Of a DNA stretch of 64,000 nt, positions 5,074 to 56,274 are shown one piece after another. The translations under genes and the position numbers were made by a program. The notes beneath the pieces were generated by a model. That model was not told the DNA's origin. It was given only the letters and a program-made list of their open reading frames with translations, and did no database searches. This stretch comes from an uncultured Eubacteriales bacterium (lineage in GTDB: Bacteria > Acidobacteriota > Aminicenantia > Aminicenantales > UBA4085), in contig CAZKXI010000002.1 in the NCBI GenBank assembly GCA_964556755.1, positions 88,263 to 152,262 of the forward strand, given 5' to 3'. Each line of letters opens with the position of its first letter. The first letter of the stretch is position 1.

Positions 5074-6054
5074 TCACCGCAGCCCCAGCTCGCCGAGCAA
5101 ATCCATCAGATCGAGGCCCTCGACCGGAGCCGGGATGAAGCAGAGGACGAAGATCGCGACCAAGGCCGCGGCCACGATCGTCCGGCCCCGCCCCAGAGGG
5201 GAGGGCTCGTCCCAGACGCGCGGGTGCTTGAGTCCCAAGACCAGAATGAGGAGTCCCCAGACCCACCAGCCCAGCCAGAACAGCGCCCCCATGACCAGGA
5301 AGAAGACAAGGAAGATTTTCGCCACGTAGCGCGCCCGCGGGCCCAAGACGGCGTAGGCGACATGGCCGCCGTCCAGCTGTCCCAAGGGAAGGAGATTCAA
5401 AGCCGTCACCAGCATGCCCACCCAACCGGCGAAGGCGACCGGATGGAGGATGACATCGAATCCCGGGCCCGTCCCGCGCAGCGTCAGGGCGGTGAGGATG
5501 CGGACGATGAGCGGCTCGCCGAAGACGATGGCCTCGCTGCGCGGCAGGGCCGGGACGACCTTGGACCAAGCCAAGCCGATGGCCAAGGCCGCCAGGGCGG
5601 GCAGGAACCCGGCCAGCGGCCCGGCGGCCCCGATATCGAACAGCTGCCGCTTGCGGGTGATGGGATCGCGGATCTTGATGAAGGCGCCCATGGTCCCGAT
5701 CAGGGTCGGGGCCGGGACGAAGAAGGGCAGCGTGGCGCTGATCCCGTAGCGTCGGCAGGCCCCATAGTGGCCCATCTCGTGGGCCGTCAGGATGAGCATC
5801 AGCACGGCCGCATAGAGGAGGGCCAGGCCGATCGCCCGCGGGTCCCGAAGGGCGGCCCGCAGGCCGCCTTCGAGGAGAGCCGGGCTGGGGCGCCCGGCCG
5901 CCAGATAGCCGACGCCCCAGTCCAGTCCGACCAGGAAAGCCGTTCCGGCCGTCAGGAGGAAGAGCAGGGCGTTGAGCCAGGGACGATCCTTGGCGAAGAG
6001 GCTCCACCTCCGGCGGATCCGGACGGGAGCGGCGACCGGCGGTTGGGGATCCAT
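5074..6054 (-). CDS. site-2 protease family (M50) membrane metalloprotease
   Basis: HEMGH zinc motif in a TM helix, multiple TM segments, LNLLPLGQLDGGH motif typical of M50. Confidence 0.75.
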   Translation of the reverse strand: MDPQPPVAAPVRIRRRWSLFAKDRPWLNALLFLLTAGTAFLVGLDWGVGYLAAGRPSPALLEGGLRAALRDPRAIGLALLYAAVLMLILTAHEMGHYGACRRYGISATLPFFVPAPTLIGTMGAFIKIRDPITRKRQLFDIGAAGPLAGFLPALAALAIGLAWSKVVPALPRSEAIVFGEPLIVRILTALTLRGTGPGFDVILHPVAFAGWVGMLVTALNLLPLGQLDGGHVAYAVLGPRARYVAKIFLVFFLVMGALFWLGWWVWGLLILVLGLKHPRVWDEPSPLGRGRTIVAAALVAIFVLCFIPAPVEGLDLMDLLGELGLR

Positions 6055-25332: not shown

Positions 25333-26706
25333 TCAATCATGGATTGCCTCATAGAGCCTGCGGCGGCCTTCCAGGCGTGACCGCCAGCTGGCGCCCTCCC
25401 CGCGAAGGAGTAGCGCCAGCGCCTTCCCTCGCCGGCCGATCTCGAGCTCCTCCTTGATCCACTCGATGAGGGCGGATTGCGTGAGCGGTCCTGGGGCTTG
25501 TCTGAGATGGTCTGCAATCGCGTCGATCCGGTCCTGGTCGGGGCTTGCGGCCAGCGTGAACAGCCCTTCCGGCGTCCGCTGCAGGAACGTCTGGGCCGGG
25601 GCGAAGCGGGACTTCTCCCCCGTCCCCAGCCGATAGAGCGCGTCGGGATCCGGTTCGCCGTCGTCCTCGATCTTCTGAAACGTCGAACGCTTGACGGGGT
25701 ACAGGCTCAGGGCGCAGTCGGCCAGGTCGACGATGGTGCTTGATCCCTTGCTTACGCGCTCGTTCGATTTCGGCGTGTGATGCGCCGCCTGAACGGTGAA
25801 GCCGCAGCTGGTCAGCTCGCGGAGGCGCCCCATGACCAGGCTCATGATCTCGTCGTCATTCTGCGTCCCGCTGTGGGAGCTTCTGAGGGTATCGAAAACG
25901 AGAAGGCTCCCAGCGGGGAGGCGCTTGTAGACGTCCCATCGGTCGGAGTCGAGCTTGGGAGGCGGCGTCGAGAAAGAGTAATGCCACAGGCTGATATCGT
26001 TGGCTCCGATCAGGCGGATCCTGTCGGCAACCCATGCGATCGGATTCTCATAGTCGATGATGACGACGGGGCGGCGCTTCGTCGGCAGGGAGAATATTGG
26101 ATTGCCGGAGGCGACGGCCTGGCCCGATTGCATGAAGAAGGTCGACTTGCCGGTGCCGCCTCGGGAGATCACAACCGTGACGGCCTTGTCGACCACGAGC
26201 TGATCGACGACGTACTCGATCGAGACGTCCAGGGCGGCAACCTCGCTTCCCGACATCAGGAAACGCGCCGGGTCGACCTCAGCCGGGCCCTTCGCAAGCT
26301 CCTCAATCTCTCGGTCGAGGATGCCGAGCAGCGCCTGGGCTTCGGTGTCCCAGGTTCCCGTTGCCTTGTAGTTGCGGATCTCGCGCTCGAGCAGCTTGGC
26401 TCGTTCCGAGTACTTCCGCTCGAGGCGCAGGGCTTGCACCTTAGCCTCGAATCCCGCCGGCGGCAGGAGATAGCAGCCGGAGAGCTCTTTGAATAGGGCC
26501 TCGAGGGAGCTGCCGCATTTGGCCGAGAGAAGGCCGTCCTCTACGGGCTTGGTCGGATCGTCCTCGCTGAGCTCAAGGATGGCCTCGGCAATCTTCCGCC
26601 GCGGCCCGGTGAAGAGGCCGACCGCGTAGCCTTCTGCGCGCTGCCGCTCGGGCTGCTCCTTGGCCGTGAAGAGAAGCTCACGTTCTAGAGTAATAGGGGA
26701 ATTCAT
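25333..26706 (-). CDS. RecA-fold AAA ATPase, replicative helicase/primase-associated (RepA/DnaB-like) protein
   Basis: Walker A VVISRGGTGKSTF, Walker B-like LLVFDTL; start MNSPITLE at 26706. Confidence 0.55.
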   Translation of the reverse strand: MNSPITLERELLFTAKEQPERQRAEGYAVGLFTGPRRKIAEAILELSEDDPTKPVEDGLLSAKCGSSLEALFKELSGCYLLPPAGFEAKVQALRLERKYSERAKLLEREIRNYKATGTWDTEAQALLGILDREIEELAKGPAEVDPARFLMSGSEVAALDVSIEYVVDQLVVDKAVTVVISRGGTGKSTFFMQSGQAVASGNPIFSLPTKRRPVVIIDYENPIAWVADRIRLIGANDISLWHYSFSTPPPKLDSDRWDVYKRLPAGSLLVFDTLRSSHSGTQNDDEIMSLVMGRLRELTSCGFTVQAAHHTPKSNERVSKGSSTIVDLADCALSLYPVKRSTFQKIEDDGEPDPDALYRLGTGEKSRFAPAQTFLQRTPEGLFTLAASPDQDRIDAIADHLRQAPGPLTQSALIEWIKEELEIGRRGKALALLLRGEGASWRSRLEGRRRLYEAIHD

Positions 26707-26786
26707 GCGCCGCTCCCGCCGTCCGGGAGCAGCCAATCACTCGTCTTTGTTGCCATGCTGACCTACCGGGAAAAAGATGTATGCGA

Positions 26787-28096: not shown

Positions 28097-28383
28097 GTCC
28101 GCCTCCCTGTGGCAGATCCCCGATTAAATAGAACCGGGCCAAGCGGTCAGGGATGATCCGCCGTTCGGGAGCGACCCTAGGCCCGGCTGATGTCATGGAT
28201 AGGTTCCTTCCTCAAACATAGGGTCCGCAACGGAGCAACGCAAGCGTCAATTTTGAGTGTCGACTTTTATGACGTGTTTTTTCGGTTTGGGCGGGATTTG
28301 GCGGGAATTGGCGGGAATGAGCCCCAAGGGCAAGGCTACGCGTAATGCGTTGATTTCTCAAGGTTTTAAGGGGTAAAAGGCAA

Positions 28384-28426
28384 GCGCGCCTGGGGTGACT
28401 CGAACACCCGACCAACGGTTTAGGAA
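28384..28426. repeat. attR: 43-bp direct repeat within tRNA-Arg 3' half
   Basis: Identical to 14897-14939. Confidence 0.85.
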
Positions 28427-28458
28427 ACCGCTGCTCTATCCGACTGAGCTACAGGCGC
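28385..28458 (-). tRNA. tRNA-Arg (anticodon CCT)
   Basis: Minus-strand cloverleaf: acceptor GCGCCTG/CAGGCGC, D-arm GCTCAGTCGGATAGAGC, anticodon loop TTCCTAA, T-arm GGGTGTTCGAGTCACCC; 74 nt without CCA. Confidence 0.85.
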
Positions 28459-52375: not shown

Positions 52376-53485
52376 ATGGCCAAGGCCGATCCCTTTCAAG
52401 ACCGGGCCGCGATCGAGGCCCTGCTCCGCCAGGCAGCCCGCCTGCGCCGCGAGGCCGGGCCGGATTGCCGCCTGATGGAGGTCTGCGGGACCCACACCAT
52501 GGCCGTCCACCGCAGCGGGCTCAAAGCCCGCCTGCGCCAGGCCGGCATCGAGCTGGTCGCGGGGCCCGGCTGCCCCGTCTGCATCACTCCCGGCGACATC
52601 CACGAGGCGGCCGTCGGGCTGGTCGCGGAGCGGGAGAACCTGATCCTGGCCGCCTTCGGCGACATGACCCGGGTCCCCACGCGGCGCGGCTCCCTGCAAG
52701 CGGCGGCCCCGGCGCGGGGATCGTCGGTCCGGGTCGTCTATTCGCCCCGCGAGTCGCTCGACTTGGCCAAGCGCCACCCGGACAAGGAGATCGTCTTCTT
52801 CGGGGCCGGCTTCGAGACGACCATCCCGGGCATCGCCCTGACCGCCCGGCAGGCGGCTCGGGAGGGCTTGGGCAACTACTCCGTCCTGACGGCCTTCTGG
52901 CTCATCCCGCCCCCCCTGCGGACCATCCTGAGCGCGAAGGACGCCCGCGTCTCGGGCTTCCTCTACCCGGGCCATGTCTCGGCCGTGATCGGCCCGCGCG
53001 CCTACGATTTCGTGGCCGGGGAGTTCGGCAAGCCGGGGGCCATCGCCGGCTTCGAGCCGGCGGATATACTCCTGGGGATCGTCTCCATCCTAAAGCAGCT
53101 GGTCGAGGGCCGGCCCCGGGTGGACAACGCCTACGCCAGGGTCGTCGCCCCGGAGGGCAATCCCCTGGCCCGGGCGGCCATGGCCGAGATTCTAGAGGAG
53201 AAGGACGCCGTCTGGAGGGGGCTGGGGCGGATTCCGCGAAGCGGGCTGCGGCTGCGGGACGAATACGCCGGCTGGGACGCGGAGAGGCGGTTCGGCTTGA
53301 AGCTGGGCGGCGAATCGTCCGACCTGCCCGGATGCCGCTGCGGCGACGTGCTCAAGGGCCGCATCGAGCCGCCGGGGTGCAAGCTGTTCGGGCGGAGCTG
53401 CCGGCCCGACCTGCCGCAAGGCCCCTGCATGGTCTCCTACGAGGGCGCCTGTCTGGCATTCTACAAATACGGGCGGAATCTATGA
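52376..53485 (+). CDS. hypD: hydrogenase maturation factor HypD
   Basis: MEVCGTHT, GPGCPVC, C-terminal Cys cluster. Confidence 0.9.
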   Translation: MAKADPFQDRAAIEALLRQAARLRREAGPDCRLMEVCGTHTMAVHRSGLKARLRQAGIELVAGPGCPVCITPGDIHEAAVGLVAERENLILAAFGDMTRVPTRRGSLQAAAPARGSSVRVVYSPRESLDLAKRHPDKEIVFFGAGFETTIPGIALTARQAAREGLGNYSVLTAFWLIPPPLRTILSAKDARVSGFLYPGHVSAVIGPRAYDFVAGEFGKPGAIAGFEPADILLGIVSILKQLVEGRPRVDNAYARVVAPEGNPLARAAMAEILEEKDAVWRGLGRIPRSGLRLRDEYAGWDAERRFGLKLGGESSDLPGCRCGDVLKGRIEPPGCKLFGRSCRPDLPQGPCMVSYEGACLAFYKYGRNL

Positions 53486-54474
53486 GCATCGATCGGATCG
53501 GTTTGGACCTCGGGAGCGGCGGCAAGGCCATGCGCGACTTCATCGCCGGGCGGATTCTGCCGGCTTTCCGCAATGCCCTGCTCGAGCCTCTCCTGGACGC
53601 CGGGCGCCTGCCCGAGGGCCTGGCCCTGACGACGGACAGCTACGTCGTCGATCCGCCGGTCTTTCCCGGGGGCGACATCGGGACGCTGGCCGTCAACGGG
53701 ACGGTCAACGACCTTGTCGTGTCCGGGGCCAAGCCGCTCTACCTGTCGCTGGGGCTGATCCTGGAGGAAGGGCTGGAGTGGACCCTGCTCGACCGCGTGC
53801 TGCGCTCGCTGCGCCGGGCGGCGGACGCGGCGGGCGTGCGCGTCGTCACGGGCGACACCAAGGTGGTGCGGCGCGGCCAGGGCGACGGGATCTACATCAA
53901 CACGGCCGGCCTGGGCAAGATCGTGGCCGAGCCGCGGCCCCGAAGCATCAAGACGGGCGACGCGATCATCGTCACCGGTACCCTCGGCGAGCATAGCCTG
54001 GCCATTCTGGCCGCTCGAGGCGAGTATGGATTCGACAGCCCGGCCCGCAGCGACTGCGCTCCCCTGGTCTTCCTGCTCCCCATCTGGAAGGCCGGAGCCC
54101 TGTGGATGCGCGACATTACCCGGGGCGGCCTGGCGACCGTCCTGTCGGAGCTGGCCGAAAGCCTGCCCTTCCCCGTGCTGATCGAAGAGGCCGACGTTCC
54201 CCTGTCCAAGCCGGTCCGCGCGGCCGCCGCGATCCTGGGCATTGACCCGCTCTACTTGGCGTGCGAGGGGCGGGCGGTCATCGTCGCTCCCAAGGCGAGG
54301 GCGGAGGCGATCCTGAAGAAGATCGCCGCCCATCCCCTGGGGCGGCGGGCCCGGATCATCGGACGGGTCGGGGGAAGCGAAGGGCGGCCGGGGGAACTGC
54401 TCCTGCGCACTTCGTCGGGCGGCCTGCGCCTCCTGGAGCCCCTAACCTCCGAGCTCCTCCCCCGAATTTGTTGA
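53482..54474 (+). CDS. hypE: hydrogenase expression/formation protein HypE
   Basis: PurM-like fold, C-terminal PRIC motif; ATG 53482 overlaps hypD stop; rest of ORF 52465..54474 is an alternate-frame artefact. Confidence 0.9.
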   Translation: MSIDRIGLDLGSGGKAMRDFIAGRILPAFRNALLEPLLDAGRLPEGLALTTDSYVVDPPVFPGGDIGTLAVNGTVNDLVVSGAKPLYLSLGLILEEGLEWTLLDRVLRSLRRAADAAGVRVVTGDTKVVRRGQGDGIYINTAGLGKIVAEPRPRSIKTGDAIIVTGTLGEHSLAILAARGEYGFDSPARSDCAPLVFLLPIWKAGALWMRDITRGGLATVLSELAESLPFPVLIEEADVPLSKPVRAAAAILGIDPLYLACEGRAVIVAPKARAEAILKKIAAHPLGRRARIIGRVGGSEGRPGELLLRTSSGGLRLLEPLTSELLPRIC

Positions 54475-54612
54475 TAGGGGTCAGGTTGATAGGGGTCAGG
54501 TCTCAAGATTCAAGTTAAGCCAACGTTTGTCTACGAGACGACTCCGTTCGTTGGCGATAATGCAGATAACTTGAATCTTGAGACCTGACCCCTATTTGAT
54601 AAAATAGGGGCG
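54471..54612. repeat. low-GC nested-palindrome element: tandem TTGATAGGGGTCAGG x2, 27-bp perfect inverted repeat with inner 7-bp hairpin, terminal CCCCTATTT/AAATAGGGG palindrome
   Basis: Arms AGGGGTCAGGTCTCAAGATTCAAGTTA (54491-54517) and its exact reverse complement (54567-54593), 49-nt loop with GCCAACG..CGTTGGC; starts at the hypE stop codon and ends 1 nt before the next gene. Confidence 0.6.
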
Positions 54613-56274
54613 ATGCTAAGCCGTCTGATCGCCGGGATCGCATGGGCGATCTTGTCGCTTGGCGGCGGCCCGACCCCCGTTCCAATCCAGACGCCGTCGC
54701 CGGATTCCCTTCTCGCGCCCGGCTCCTTCACCAGGATCGAGAGCGGCCTTCCGGAGATCGAGCGCCTCTTTCTCTACGCCCGCGCCACCCTGGACCGCAA
54801 CAAGACCGCCTTCCGGGGCCAGATCGGACTCGTCCGCGGATTCGCCGCCGGGACGGCCTACCCTCAGATCTGGCTCCGCGACGCCGCCACCATCATTCCC
54901 GCTTCGCGACTTCTCTATCCCCTGCCCTATCTGCGCAGCGGTCTGCTCGAACATTTGGCCATTCAGAAGGCCAACGGCGAGCTGCAGGACTGGCTGGCGC
55001 CCGACGGCCGGGCCGACAAGAACACCACTGAGACGGACCAGGAGACGAGCGCCGTTCACATCGCCGCTCAGATCACCGATCTCGTCGGACCGGCGTGGCT
55101 GGGCCAGCCGGTTCGCGGCGCCTCGGTCCTGTCGCGCCTGGAGCGGGCCCTCCAATTCGTGTGGGACGAGCGCCGCGATCCCCGCACCGGCCTCATCATG
55201 GGGGCTCACACCGTCGATTGGGGCGACGTGGAGATGGAGGAGCCCGATCAGCGGGCGATCTATGCCGGGCCCGGGACGCACTGGACGGCCGACACCTATG
55301 ACCAGGCCCAATTCCACCGCGCGGCCCAAGCCCTTGGCCGGATGCTCCGTCTCCAAGGCAAGGGATCTTCGGCCTCGCTCTGGGAGGCCCGGGCCCACGA
55401 CATCCGCCGCCGGACCGACCAGCACCTGTGGCAGGAAGCGCGGGGCTACTATCGCGTCCATATCCACTTGACGCCCCTCGAGCACGGCTTCGACGAGAGC
55501 TCCATGTTCGCCATGGGCGGCAACGTCGAGGCGATCGACGCCGGCCTGGCCTCGCCCCGCCAGATCCGGCGCATCCTGGCCGCCGCCCTGGCCAAGCAGA
55601 AGGAATTCGGGATGTCCACCATCAGCGGCGTCCTGCTGCCGCCCTACGCCAAAGGCGTCTTCAAGCATCCCATGGTCGACGATCCCTACGAGTATCAGAA
55701 CGGCGGCCAGTGGGACTGGTTCGGCGGCAAGCTGGTCCTGGCCCTCTTTCGCGACGGCGGGCGGGGGCAAGGCGAGACGGCGCTCCTGGAGATCGCCCGC
55801 AAGGCGATCGCCAACGACGGCCTCTTCGAATGGGACGACCCCAAGGGCCGCGGCCGGGGCAGCCCGACCTATTCCGGCAGCGCGGGCAGCCTCACCCGGG
55901 CTATCGTCGAGGGCTATTACGGGCTTGAGGCCTCGGCCGACGGCCTGCGCATCGAGCCCCGCCTGGGCGCCCGCGCCGGGGCCATCCACCTCTATTTCCC
56001 GTCCAACGGGCGCTACGCCGCCTATCGCTACCGCTTCGATTCGGCGGCGGCCCGAATCGACTTGGCCTGGGCCTCGGACGGACCGGAGCCGACCCTCATC
56101 CGCCTTCCCTGGCCCGTCAGCGGCTCGGCGGCCCTCCAGAGCCGCTTTCAGGTCCGCCTCGACGGGCGGCCGACCGAGTACCAGGTCGATCCCGGCCTGG
56201 ACGGTCCCGTCGTCGCCGTCCAAACCGGGCCCGGCCCGCACGCCGTCAGCGTCCAGGCGATCAAGACCCCCTGA
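54613..56274 (+). CDS. secreted (alpha/alpha)6-barrel glycoside hydrolase-like protein
   Basis: Signal peptide; QIWLRDAA and acidic residues reminiscent of glucoamylase/GH63-like six-hairpin glycosidases; family assignment uncertain. Confidence 0.45.
   Translation: MLSRLIAGIAWAILSLGGGPTPVPIQTPSPDSLLAPGSFTRIESGLPEIERLFLYARATLDRNKTAFRGQIGLVRGFAAGTAYPQIWLRDAATIIPASRLLYPLPYLRSGLLEHLAIQKANGELQDWLAPDGRADKNTTETDQETSAVHIAAQITDLVGPAWLGQPVRGASVLSRLERALQFVWDERRDPRTGLIMGAHTVDWGDVEMEEPDQRAIYAGPGTHWTADTYDQAQFHRAAQALGRMLRLQGKGSSASLWEARAHDIRRRTDQHLWQEARGYYRVHIHLTPLEHGFDESSMFAMGGNVEAIDAGLASPRQIRRILAAALAKQKEFGMSTISGVLLPPYAKGVFKHPMVDDPYEYQNGGQWDWFGGKLVLALFRDGGRGQGETALLEIARKAIANDGLFEWDDPKGRGRGSPTYSGSAGSLTRAIVEGYYGLEASADGLRIEPRLGARAGAIHLYFPSNGRYAAYRYRFDSAAARIDLAWASDGPEPTLIRLPWPVSGSAALQSRFQVRLDGRPTEYQVDPGLDGPVVAVQTGPGPHAVSVQAIKTP

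Follow-up and report, generated by a model that had tools for sequence, protein, structure and literature searches.

The hairpin behind hypE in an Aminicenantia contig: a probable internally deleted TIRtron derivative

In their description of RAYT-like genes, Di Nocera, De Gregorio and Rocco (2013, BMC Genomics 14:522, PMC3733652) reported genes bordered not by REPs but by long terminal inverted repeats; the units were named TIRtrons, the proteins TIRYTs, and the repeats share the common motif GGGGWSAS. They added that TIRYT repeats can be found singly, as dimers and in clusters, with the acidobacterium Koribacter as an example. According to Quentin et al. (2018, BMC Genomics 19:475, PMC6006769), most TIRYTs belong to TnpA-Y1 subclass 2.1, which was present in about 15% of the sampled strains; group 2.1.2 has Bac_DnaA_C-like or helix-turn-helix (HTH) C-termini, and the authors stress that nothing is known of function. 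Here we analysed 64,000 nucleotides of contig CAZKXI010000002.1 from an uncultured member of the Aminicenantia (this whole stretch is called the window), in which a long hairpin lies between hypE and the next gene. We found that this hairpin is a further TIRYT/TIRtron repeat dimer, of a kind already named but little studied. Judging from its sequence, the element at 54489-54595, which measures 107 bp from tip to tip, is probably a non-autonomous, internally deleted derivative of a TIRtron, that is, the TIRYT counterpart of a REPIN.

The element is made up of the following parts:
54489-54517, + strand: left arm, a complete TIRtron-type terminal inverted repeat, ATAGGGGTCAGGTCTCAAGATTCAAGTTA, one half of a perfect 29-nt inverted repeat that starts with the GGGGWSAS motif
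54518-54566, + strand: loop of 49 nt, richer in A and T, with an inner 7-bp hairpin (54519-54525 / 54549-54555)
54567-54595, + strand: right arm, the reverse complement of the left arm, with a -35-like TTGAGA at 54578-54583

The two inverted units and the 49-nt spacer fold as one perfect 29-bp stem. The 29-nt arm occurred 0 times in 100 shuffles, and the region folded as RNA at -69.8 kcal/mol (z = -9.4), as DNA at -38.6 kcal/mol (z = -12.3). A single arm has no self-complementarity and no GTAG or CGTC tag; it holds a 7-nt direct sub-repeat (TCAAGAT/TCAAGTT). A preliminary description of this stretch, made from the letters alone, had reported a perfect 27-bp inverted repeat with a gap of 49 nt and an internal 7-bp hairpin; its perfection, gap and hairpin were all found again, and only the arm length had to be corrected, to 29. 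The same description let the element run from the hypE stop codon to 1 nt before the next start. The left repeat does begin with the last base of the stop codon in the ancestral arrangement, but the right limit is 54595, and the last 17 nt of the intergenic stretch are the promoter of the downstream gene and not mobile DNA. The conspicuous AT-richness was evident from the numbers, with an intergenic GC content of 0.44-0.51 vs. about 0.68-0.72 in the surroundings.

To place the arms, 20 nt of the arm were scanned against 185,579 species genomes. This 20-mer was present at 10 genome loci, in Verrucomicrobiota, Lentisphaerales, Victivallales, Pontiella (Kiritimatiellota) and one Candidatus Aminicenantes metagenome-assembled genome (MAG), and a degenerate 23-mer of the repeat added 18 further metagenome loci, while the viral contigs scanned with the degenerate repeat gave 0 matches. 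In all loci the outer boundary was sharp, with similarity beginning at (ATA)GGGG and extending inward. A position weight matrix (PWM) was built from 46 independent repeat tips of other genomes, with the consensus ATAGGGGTCAGGTCTCAAGATTCAAGATT; the window arms agree with it at 27 of 29 positions and score 49.1 bits, and the next best site in the 64 kb scores 0.1. The ATA is present in the consensus of the 46 tips and belongs to the repeat proper. The search for additional copies proposed in the preliminary description was applied within the window, where the element proved single: no further copy was detected by the 29-mer and the 15-mer with 3 mismatches or by the PWM of the 46 tips.

The consensus terminal inverted repeat (ATAGGGGTCAGGTCTCAAGATTCAAG...) flanks genes of about 1.1 kb for Y1/HUH transposases with a DnaA-C-like HTH. 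TIRYT-coding similarity was present inward of 14 of 35 repeat ends, at 12 of the 28 loci, and five TIRtrons were complete (L010, L022, L024, L029 and L044), measuring 1090-1154 bp, or 1090-1114 bp when L010 is set aside. In L010, inverted copies of the repeat lie 1,156 bp apart around a 320-aa open reading frame (ORF) with the Pfam domains Y1_Tnp (IS200-like) and Bac_DnaA_C; the best NCBIfam match of this protein was the REP-associated tyrosine transposase (REP_Tyr_transpos), at 64.2 bits and thus below the cut-off of 80. The transposase clade concerned comprised 288 representatives at E<=1e-30 and 7,700 at E<=1e-10. Internally deleted relatives were also found: a 244-bp derivative (L008), of which one Lentisphaerales MAG holds multiple copies, has kept codons from both ends of the gene, the first 23 and the last 26, and the other derivatives measure 59-242 bp. 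Of the several natures that had been suggested for the element, a MITE/REP-like repeat is therefore the one that was borne out, because its arms are the TIRtron terminal repeat and graded internally deleted derivatives exist elsewhere. Within the phylum, the window and the non-orthologous Aminicenantes locus L012 have 30 nt of right arm and loop in common, which points to at least two insertions of one subfamily.

Several observations were made at these loci. The longest ORF upstream of the first L012 element continues across the left arm and ends inside the loop. The L012 contig also holds a minimal 24-bp palindrome, GGGGTCAGGTC-GA-GACTTGACCCC, straight after the stop codon of an ORF whose C-terminus looked tyrosine-recombinase-like by eye; these two L012 observations concern positions 5877-5902 and 1503-1565. 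An apparent RHS/YD-repeat gene contains, at L019 2960-3460, a truncated TIRtron that bears several repeat tips as well as arrays of GCGATAGGGGTC units. Many of the TIRYT homologues P0121-P0240 were on contigs of 1.1-1.4 kb, about one TIRtron long; because contigs of one-unit length are typical of multi-copy repeats that break assemblies, this suggests that the autonomous unit is multi-copy, or proliferating, in some genomes.

The right arm can also be read as coding sequence. Together with the adjoining loop, and in frame with an internal TGA, it reads ...A-D-N-L-N-L-E-T-stop in the window; the L012 element reads E-D-N-L-N-L-E-T-stop, L040 reads I-L-N-L-K-T-stop and L033 reads M-L-N-V-K-T-stop. 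Among 120 homologues, TIRYT C-termini were mostly xLN[VL][EK]T. In the complete unit L022, the right repeat TTCTTGAATCTTGAGACCTGA-CCCC encodes the last codons F-L-N-L-E-T-stop. We observed the same layout, with about six last codons, the TGA stop and CCCC carried by the right repeat, at L022 1222-1246, L044 2335-2364 and window 54567-54592. The arms of L033 matched the repeats of the MLNVKT-type TIRtron L044 at 23 of 28 positions and the window arms at 19 of 28. Because the right-arm reading frames match the C-termini and subtypes of TIRYTs, the arms are fossils of transposase 3' ends, the left arm being a mirrored copy. This coding overlap may contribute to the near-identity of the repeat across phyla.

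Of the known systems, the described TIRtrons are the closest. The window arms, (ATA)GGGGTCAG, fit the outer-end GGGGWSAS given in PMC3733652; the repeat flanks, in inverted orientation, a Y1/HUH gene with a Bac_DnaA_C-like HTH in the five complete units found elsewhere; and extragenic dimers, as well as a distribution in Acidobacteria (Koribacter) and the PVC group, are documented for the family. In contrast, the available portions of PMC3733652 and PMC6006769 do not mention cross-phylum near-identity, the C-terminal codon overlap, persistence at an orthologous site or tip duplications, and the sequence of the repeat subfamily ATAGGGGTCAGGTCTCAAGATTCAAG was not found by a literature text search. 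REPIN-RAYT systems (Bertels & Rainey 2011, PLoS Genet 7:e1002132) resemble the window element in that two inverted units form one hairpin, which is gene-less and lies just downstream of genes, in that the repeat is tied to a single-domain Y1 transposase between its inverted copies, and in that the arms stay complementary. However, REP units are imperfect palindromes tagged GTAG or CGTC, whereas the unit repeat of the window is not palindromic and has no GTAG tag; the associated protein falls below the REP_Tyr_transpos cut-off (64.2 vs. 80 bits), has an extra HTH (Bac_DnaA_C) and is not a bona fide RAYT; and the repeat copy number seen is low.

Elements of the IS200/IS605 family (IS608, ISDra2) share a Y1 HUH transposase with Pfam Y1_Tnp and a presumed single-stranded DNA (ssDNA) substrate with hairpins, but their hairpins are subterminal, they have no terminal inverted repeats and their transposase has no HTH, whereas window-type ends are true inverted repeats. 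Transcribed bacterial MITEs such as Correia/NEMIS and ERIC are likewise inverted-repeat elements of 60-250 bp beside coding regions, with a strong co-transcribed hairpin, and can provide promoter hexamers. They are generally considered to rely on DDE transposases and to create target duplications; the window element differs from them in deriving from a tyrosine-transposase unit. MITEs of this sort are listed in PMC3733652.

The same site was then compared in related genomes, in which the gene order hypC-hypD-hypE-GH-nitroreductase is kept (GH, the glycoside-hydrolase-like gene that follows hypE; identities are to the window). By the names that homologues of the GH gene carry, the window belongs to Acidobacteriota/Aminicenantes. 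The hairpin-bearing orthologues were as follows:
L042/L043: GH at least 90% identical in protein and 98% in DNA; same arms, 3-5 loop substitutions, no 15-nt duplication
L040/L032: GH 82% identical; hairpin with a 21-nt loop
L031: GH 72% identical; 43-nt loop, with CGTTCGTTGGC...GCAGA in common with the window
L033-35: GH 61% identical; 123-nt AT-rich loop and an 11-nt tip duplication of its own, TAAAGCGGGGG x2

In these loci the hairpin starts inside the hypE stop codon or 1-6 nt past it. The loop, of 21-123 nt, is mostly unalignable in the remoter orthologues, and by eye its homology is restricted to the window and L031. One more orthologue, P0002 (76% identity), has a spacer of 118 bp. In L036, a sister of L033 at 79% identity, all that is left of the hairpin is a remnant of the right arm, TAAGACCTAACCCC, from which hypE now takes its stop codon; the left arm and loop look like they were lost by a microhomology-mediated deletion, and the remnant was read at L036 2555-2575 as TGT TAA GACCTAACCCC. 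The hairpin was absent in L037 (56%) and in L039 (58%, with another upstream gene). Four distinct arm pairs were compared over 26 base pairs, with partners slid by 1-3 columns as the control. Pairing was 98.1%: 18 pairs never varied, in 7 both partners had changed, in none had a single partner changed, and no G-U occurred, whereas the slid controls paired at 21-51% only. The outer 12 nt, GGGGTCAGGTCT, were invariant across the orthologous arms, and in the 98%-identical strains the arms showed 0 changes in 58 positions vs. 3-5 in the 49 of the loop. Constraint on sequence is thus seen in the arms and not in the loop, which evolves freely.

Since the inner differences between arms coincide with natural TIRtron variants (E/K and L/V codons), they do not represent free compensatory drift. 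With its invariant outer 12 nt and its lack of G-U, the stem pattern looks like the product of constraint at the level of protein or DNA instead of a free RNA helix. Either the arms would have been re-templated from, or selected to match, a resident TIRtron, or distinct subfamily members would have entered the site independently. The 3 nt flanking the element are alike on both sides in two lineages, TTG/TTG in the window (54486-54488 / 54596-54598) and CTG/CTG in L040 (2905-2907 / 2983-2985), a hint of separate insertions. These flanks could be a 3-bp target duplication from such insertions, or chance; the TTG/CTG difference goes along with a difference at the third position of the Cys codon in hypE, and no flank duplication was seen in L031, L033, L012 or L044.

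The scenario that we propose for an internally deleted TIRtron derivative is the following. A TIRtron is a unit of about 1.1 kb in which two terminal inverted repeats of about 29 nt enclose the gene for a TIRYT, an IS200/RAYT-like Y1 HUH tyrosine transposase whose C-terminal domain is a DnaA-C-like helix-turn-helix. At this site only the two repeats and a short loop are left, able to fold as a perfect 29-bp hairpin on single-stranded DNA or RNA. By analogy with RAYT/REP and IS608, a resident TIRYT would recognise the arms, probably as an ssDNA hairpin, and thereby keep them intact, and it could mobilise, re-template or re-insert the element in trans. From its position, the transcribed hairpin would end or stabilise the hypCDE message; we consider it probably a 3' hairpin for hypCDE. 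The right arm would lend a -35-like hexamer to the conserved extended -10 of the downstream gene, which appears to be leaderless, and polymerase stalling a few bases into the stem, with slippage, would have given the 15-nt duplication across the left tip.

Some observations weigh against this explanation. There is no TIRYT gene and no second repeat copy within the window, and no TIRYT gene was found in the orthologous loci either; none from Aminicenantes was evident in the homologue list, in which taxon names are sparse. The Aminicenantes MAG of L012 has the exact 20-mer at one locus only, so copy numbers may be very low. A target-site duplication or a conserved target was not established. The literature searched contained no TIRYT biochemistry, and the ssDNA-hairpin mechanism thus depends on the analogy with RAYT/REP and IS608. 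Finally, the mirrored changes in the arms, taken by themselves, fit selection on a hairpin as well as two binding sites that co-evolve with one protein.

A more specific form of the explanation supposes that the hairpin has long been passed on vertically as the partner of a resident TIRYT, an association in Acidobacteriota in the manner of a REPIN and its RAYT, with the site kept occupied and the arms re-templated or replaced by the current subtype; a nick about 5-10 nt inside the tip would leave the duplications as its footprint. The arm subtypes seen are NLNLET in the window lineage, ILNLKT in L040 and MLNVKT in L033. We advance this form only tentatively. A different history would make the hairpin an exapted relic, a descendant of TIRtron repeats cut off from any transposase and kept by the host because, in the form of a 3' stem-loop, it terminates or shields the hypCDE transcript and separates that transcript from the next promoter. 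The single copy in 64 kb without a TIRYT nearby, the retention of the site while the identity of the neighbouring protein ranges from 61 to 98%, the very stable RNA fold (-69.8 kcal/mol, z = -9.4) and the placement, from within the stop codon to just ahead of a conserved promoter, all agree with it, as does the statement in PMC3733652 that REPs and MITEs are known as mRNA stabilisers. However, a structural RNA stem should drift through G-U pairs, whereas here G-U is lacking and the outer 12 nt are not only invariant but identical to TIRtron repeats of other phyla, and the inner variants are natural coding variants (E/K, L/V). Moreover, no U-tract is conserved after the stem, and the hairpin was lost in L036 and is absent from L037 and L039 with the gene order otherwise intact. 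We therefore regard an exapted relic as rather unlikely. The stem does not look like the free RNA helix of a small structured RNA, as the preliminary description had it among its options: the changes in the stem are exclusively from one Watson-Crick pair to another, and the covariance-model scan that it proposed gave no Rfam family for the region at E<=10 and nothing relevant for the whole window at gathering thresholds, the best match in the region being mir-981 with 14.2 bits against a gathering score of 51. A role of its own for the transcribed hairpin is possible.

A palindromic operator, in which the arms are bound by a dimeric protein that regulates the hyp operon or the GH-like gene, would account for perfectly symmetric, sequence-conserved arms beside a promoter and for the four ATAGGGG motifs. 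The regulator site that had been proposed is nevertheless very improbable, given that orthologues differ in arm spacing, which ranges from 21 to 123 nt, that the repeat also flanks transposase genes in unrelated phyla and contexts, and that the promoter is kept in the orthologues without a hairpin. Tn3-family repeats start with GGGG, as the repeat does here, and in the window GGGG...CCCC has a TA at either end, which would suit a miniature inverted-repeat element of a DDE transposase, either of IS630/Tc1 type with a TA duplication or a Tn3-derived TIME. Both forms were dropped as hardly credible: ATA lies within the repeat consensus of the 46 tips, other copies have neither the TA nor a 5-bp duplication, and the only gene found between such repeats is Y1_Tnp and never a DDE transposase. 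The least probable explanation, to which we attach next to no weight, is an ordinary intrinsic terminator or a chance palindrome unrelated to mobile DNA. It has the position directly after a stop codon in its favour, but an arm of 26-29 nt is identical to repeats at 28 loci of other phyla, the shuffles never returned it, and no terminator-like site was called. The bidirectional terminator of the preliminary description is not supported either, because both genes bordering the hairpin are on the + strand and no U-tract terminator was called at the hairpin site; past the stem, each orthologue has a sequence of its own, with no conserved T-run. An attC site was also considered and rejected, as there was no GTTRRRY core.

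The left tip of the element carries a further feature:
54470/54471-54499/54500, + strand: 15-nt tandem duplication, TTGATAGGGGTCAGG x2, within a periodic stretch at 54470-54501; a GT microhomology bounds the unit

The 15-bp tandem repeat noted earlier is thus present. Its unit consists of 6 nt of flank and the first 9 nt after the ATA of the left repeat tip. The strains L042 and L043, with flanking genes 98% identical to those of the window, read TTGTTGATAGGGGTCAGGTCTC at this place and have no duplication, which indicates a recent, strain-specific event. Tandem duplications straddling a tip were found at 6 of 50 independent tips, vs. 72 of 20,000 random positions (0.36%), and their inner boundary always lies about 5-10 nt inside the repeat. 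Examples were seen at L022 1232-1266 (15 nt), L033 3814-3835 (11 nt) and L010 4489-4506 (GGGGTC x3), and at L019 2981-3162 and 3296-3329, where they include a five-unit array. For the 15-nt duplication we favour replication slippage at the stem entry or at a protein-bound tip; as an alternative, the tip duplications may come from a transposase nick at the inner boundary.

Between the right arm and the next gene, two features were distinguished, the second of which was read at the same place in other genomes:
54589-54597 / 54602-54610, + strand: 9-bp palindrome, CCCCTATTT/AAATAGGGG, whose 3' half is a fourth ATAGGGG motif
54597-54605, + strand: extended -10 box, TGATAAAAT, of the GH-like gene, 7 nt before the ATG at 54613 and outside the mobile element
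Extended -10 and start region: window 54597-54615; L040 2982-3003; L031 380-400; L036 2575-2598; L037 3990-4015; L039 690-713

The promoter scan combined the -10 at 54600-54605 (TG at 54597-54598) with the TTGAGA at 54578-54583 in the right arm, with 10 of 12 matches. TGnTAnAAT lies 7-8 nt before the GH start in every orthologue that was read, among them the hairpin-less L037 and L039, and no conserved Shine-Dalgarno sequence precedes the GH gene in these orthologues. Because of this spacing, which is interpreted by established promoter geometry, and because a conserved Shine-Dalgarno sequence is missing, the GH-like gene is probably expressed from a leaderless mRNA across the clade. A terminal palindrome had been assigned to the element, and the 9-bp palindrome does exist; it extends past the end of the element at 54595, however, and it is not conserved in L040, L031 or L033. 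Its 3' half (54602-54610) is lineage-specific and probably fortuitous.

Within the Y1 (IS200/RAYT) transposase superfamily, the TIRYT/TIRtron group is one of the largest branches, and the loci compared here provide a natural series that runs from the complete unit through derivatives of 244, 107 and 61 bp to a solo-arm remnant, with an orthologous site traceable through about 40% protein divergence. The comparison leads to the predictions that cleavage would occur near GGGGTCA^GG, that the repeat overlaps the C-terminus of the transposase and that the arm subtype follows the resident transposase. For annotation, an odd AT-rich palindrome is accounted for and set apart from the real promoter of the putatively leaderless gene. 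New leads for the family are the identity of the repeat across phyla, its overlap with coding sequence, the persistence of the site while subtypes switch, and the duplications at the tips.

The upstream gene and its stop codon are placed as follows:
53476-54474, + strand: hypE ORF, with AIRS and AIRS_C domains, preceded by hypC and hypD; the protein ends in PRIC
54472-54474, + strand: hypE stop codon TGA, whose final base is base 1 of the terminal repeat in the ancestral, unduplicated arrangement

An exact record look-up for the HypE protein returned none. Downstream, the ATG at 54613 opens a gene for a 553-aa MGH1-like glycoside-hydrolase-like protein. The Logan (SRA-derived) contigs that carry this downstream gene, 4 of 4 (L001, L002, L035 and L041), start exactly at an arm boundary of the hairpin, probably because the inverted repeat interrupted the assembly or because coverage falls at the hairpin. 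Elsewhere in the window, a tRNA-Arg(CCT) at 28384-28458 on the minus strand adjoins an int-alpA RNA match (28118-28187, 43.5 bits), and the GC content dips to 0.60-0.65 at about 14-30 kb, where an ORF with an AAA_25 domain is found at 25333-26736. The region around this tRNA gene is probably an island integrated at it.

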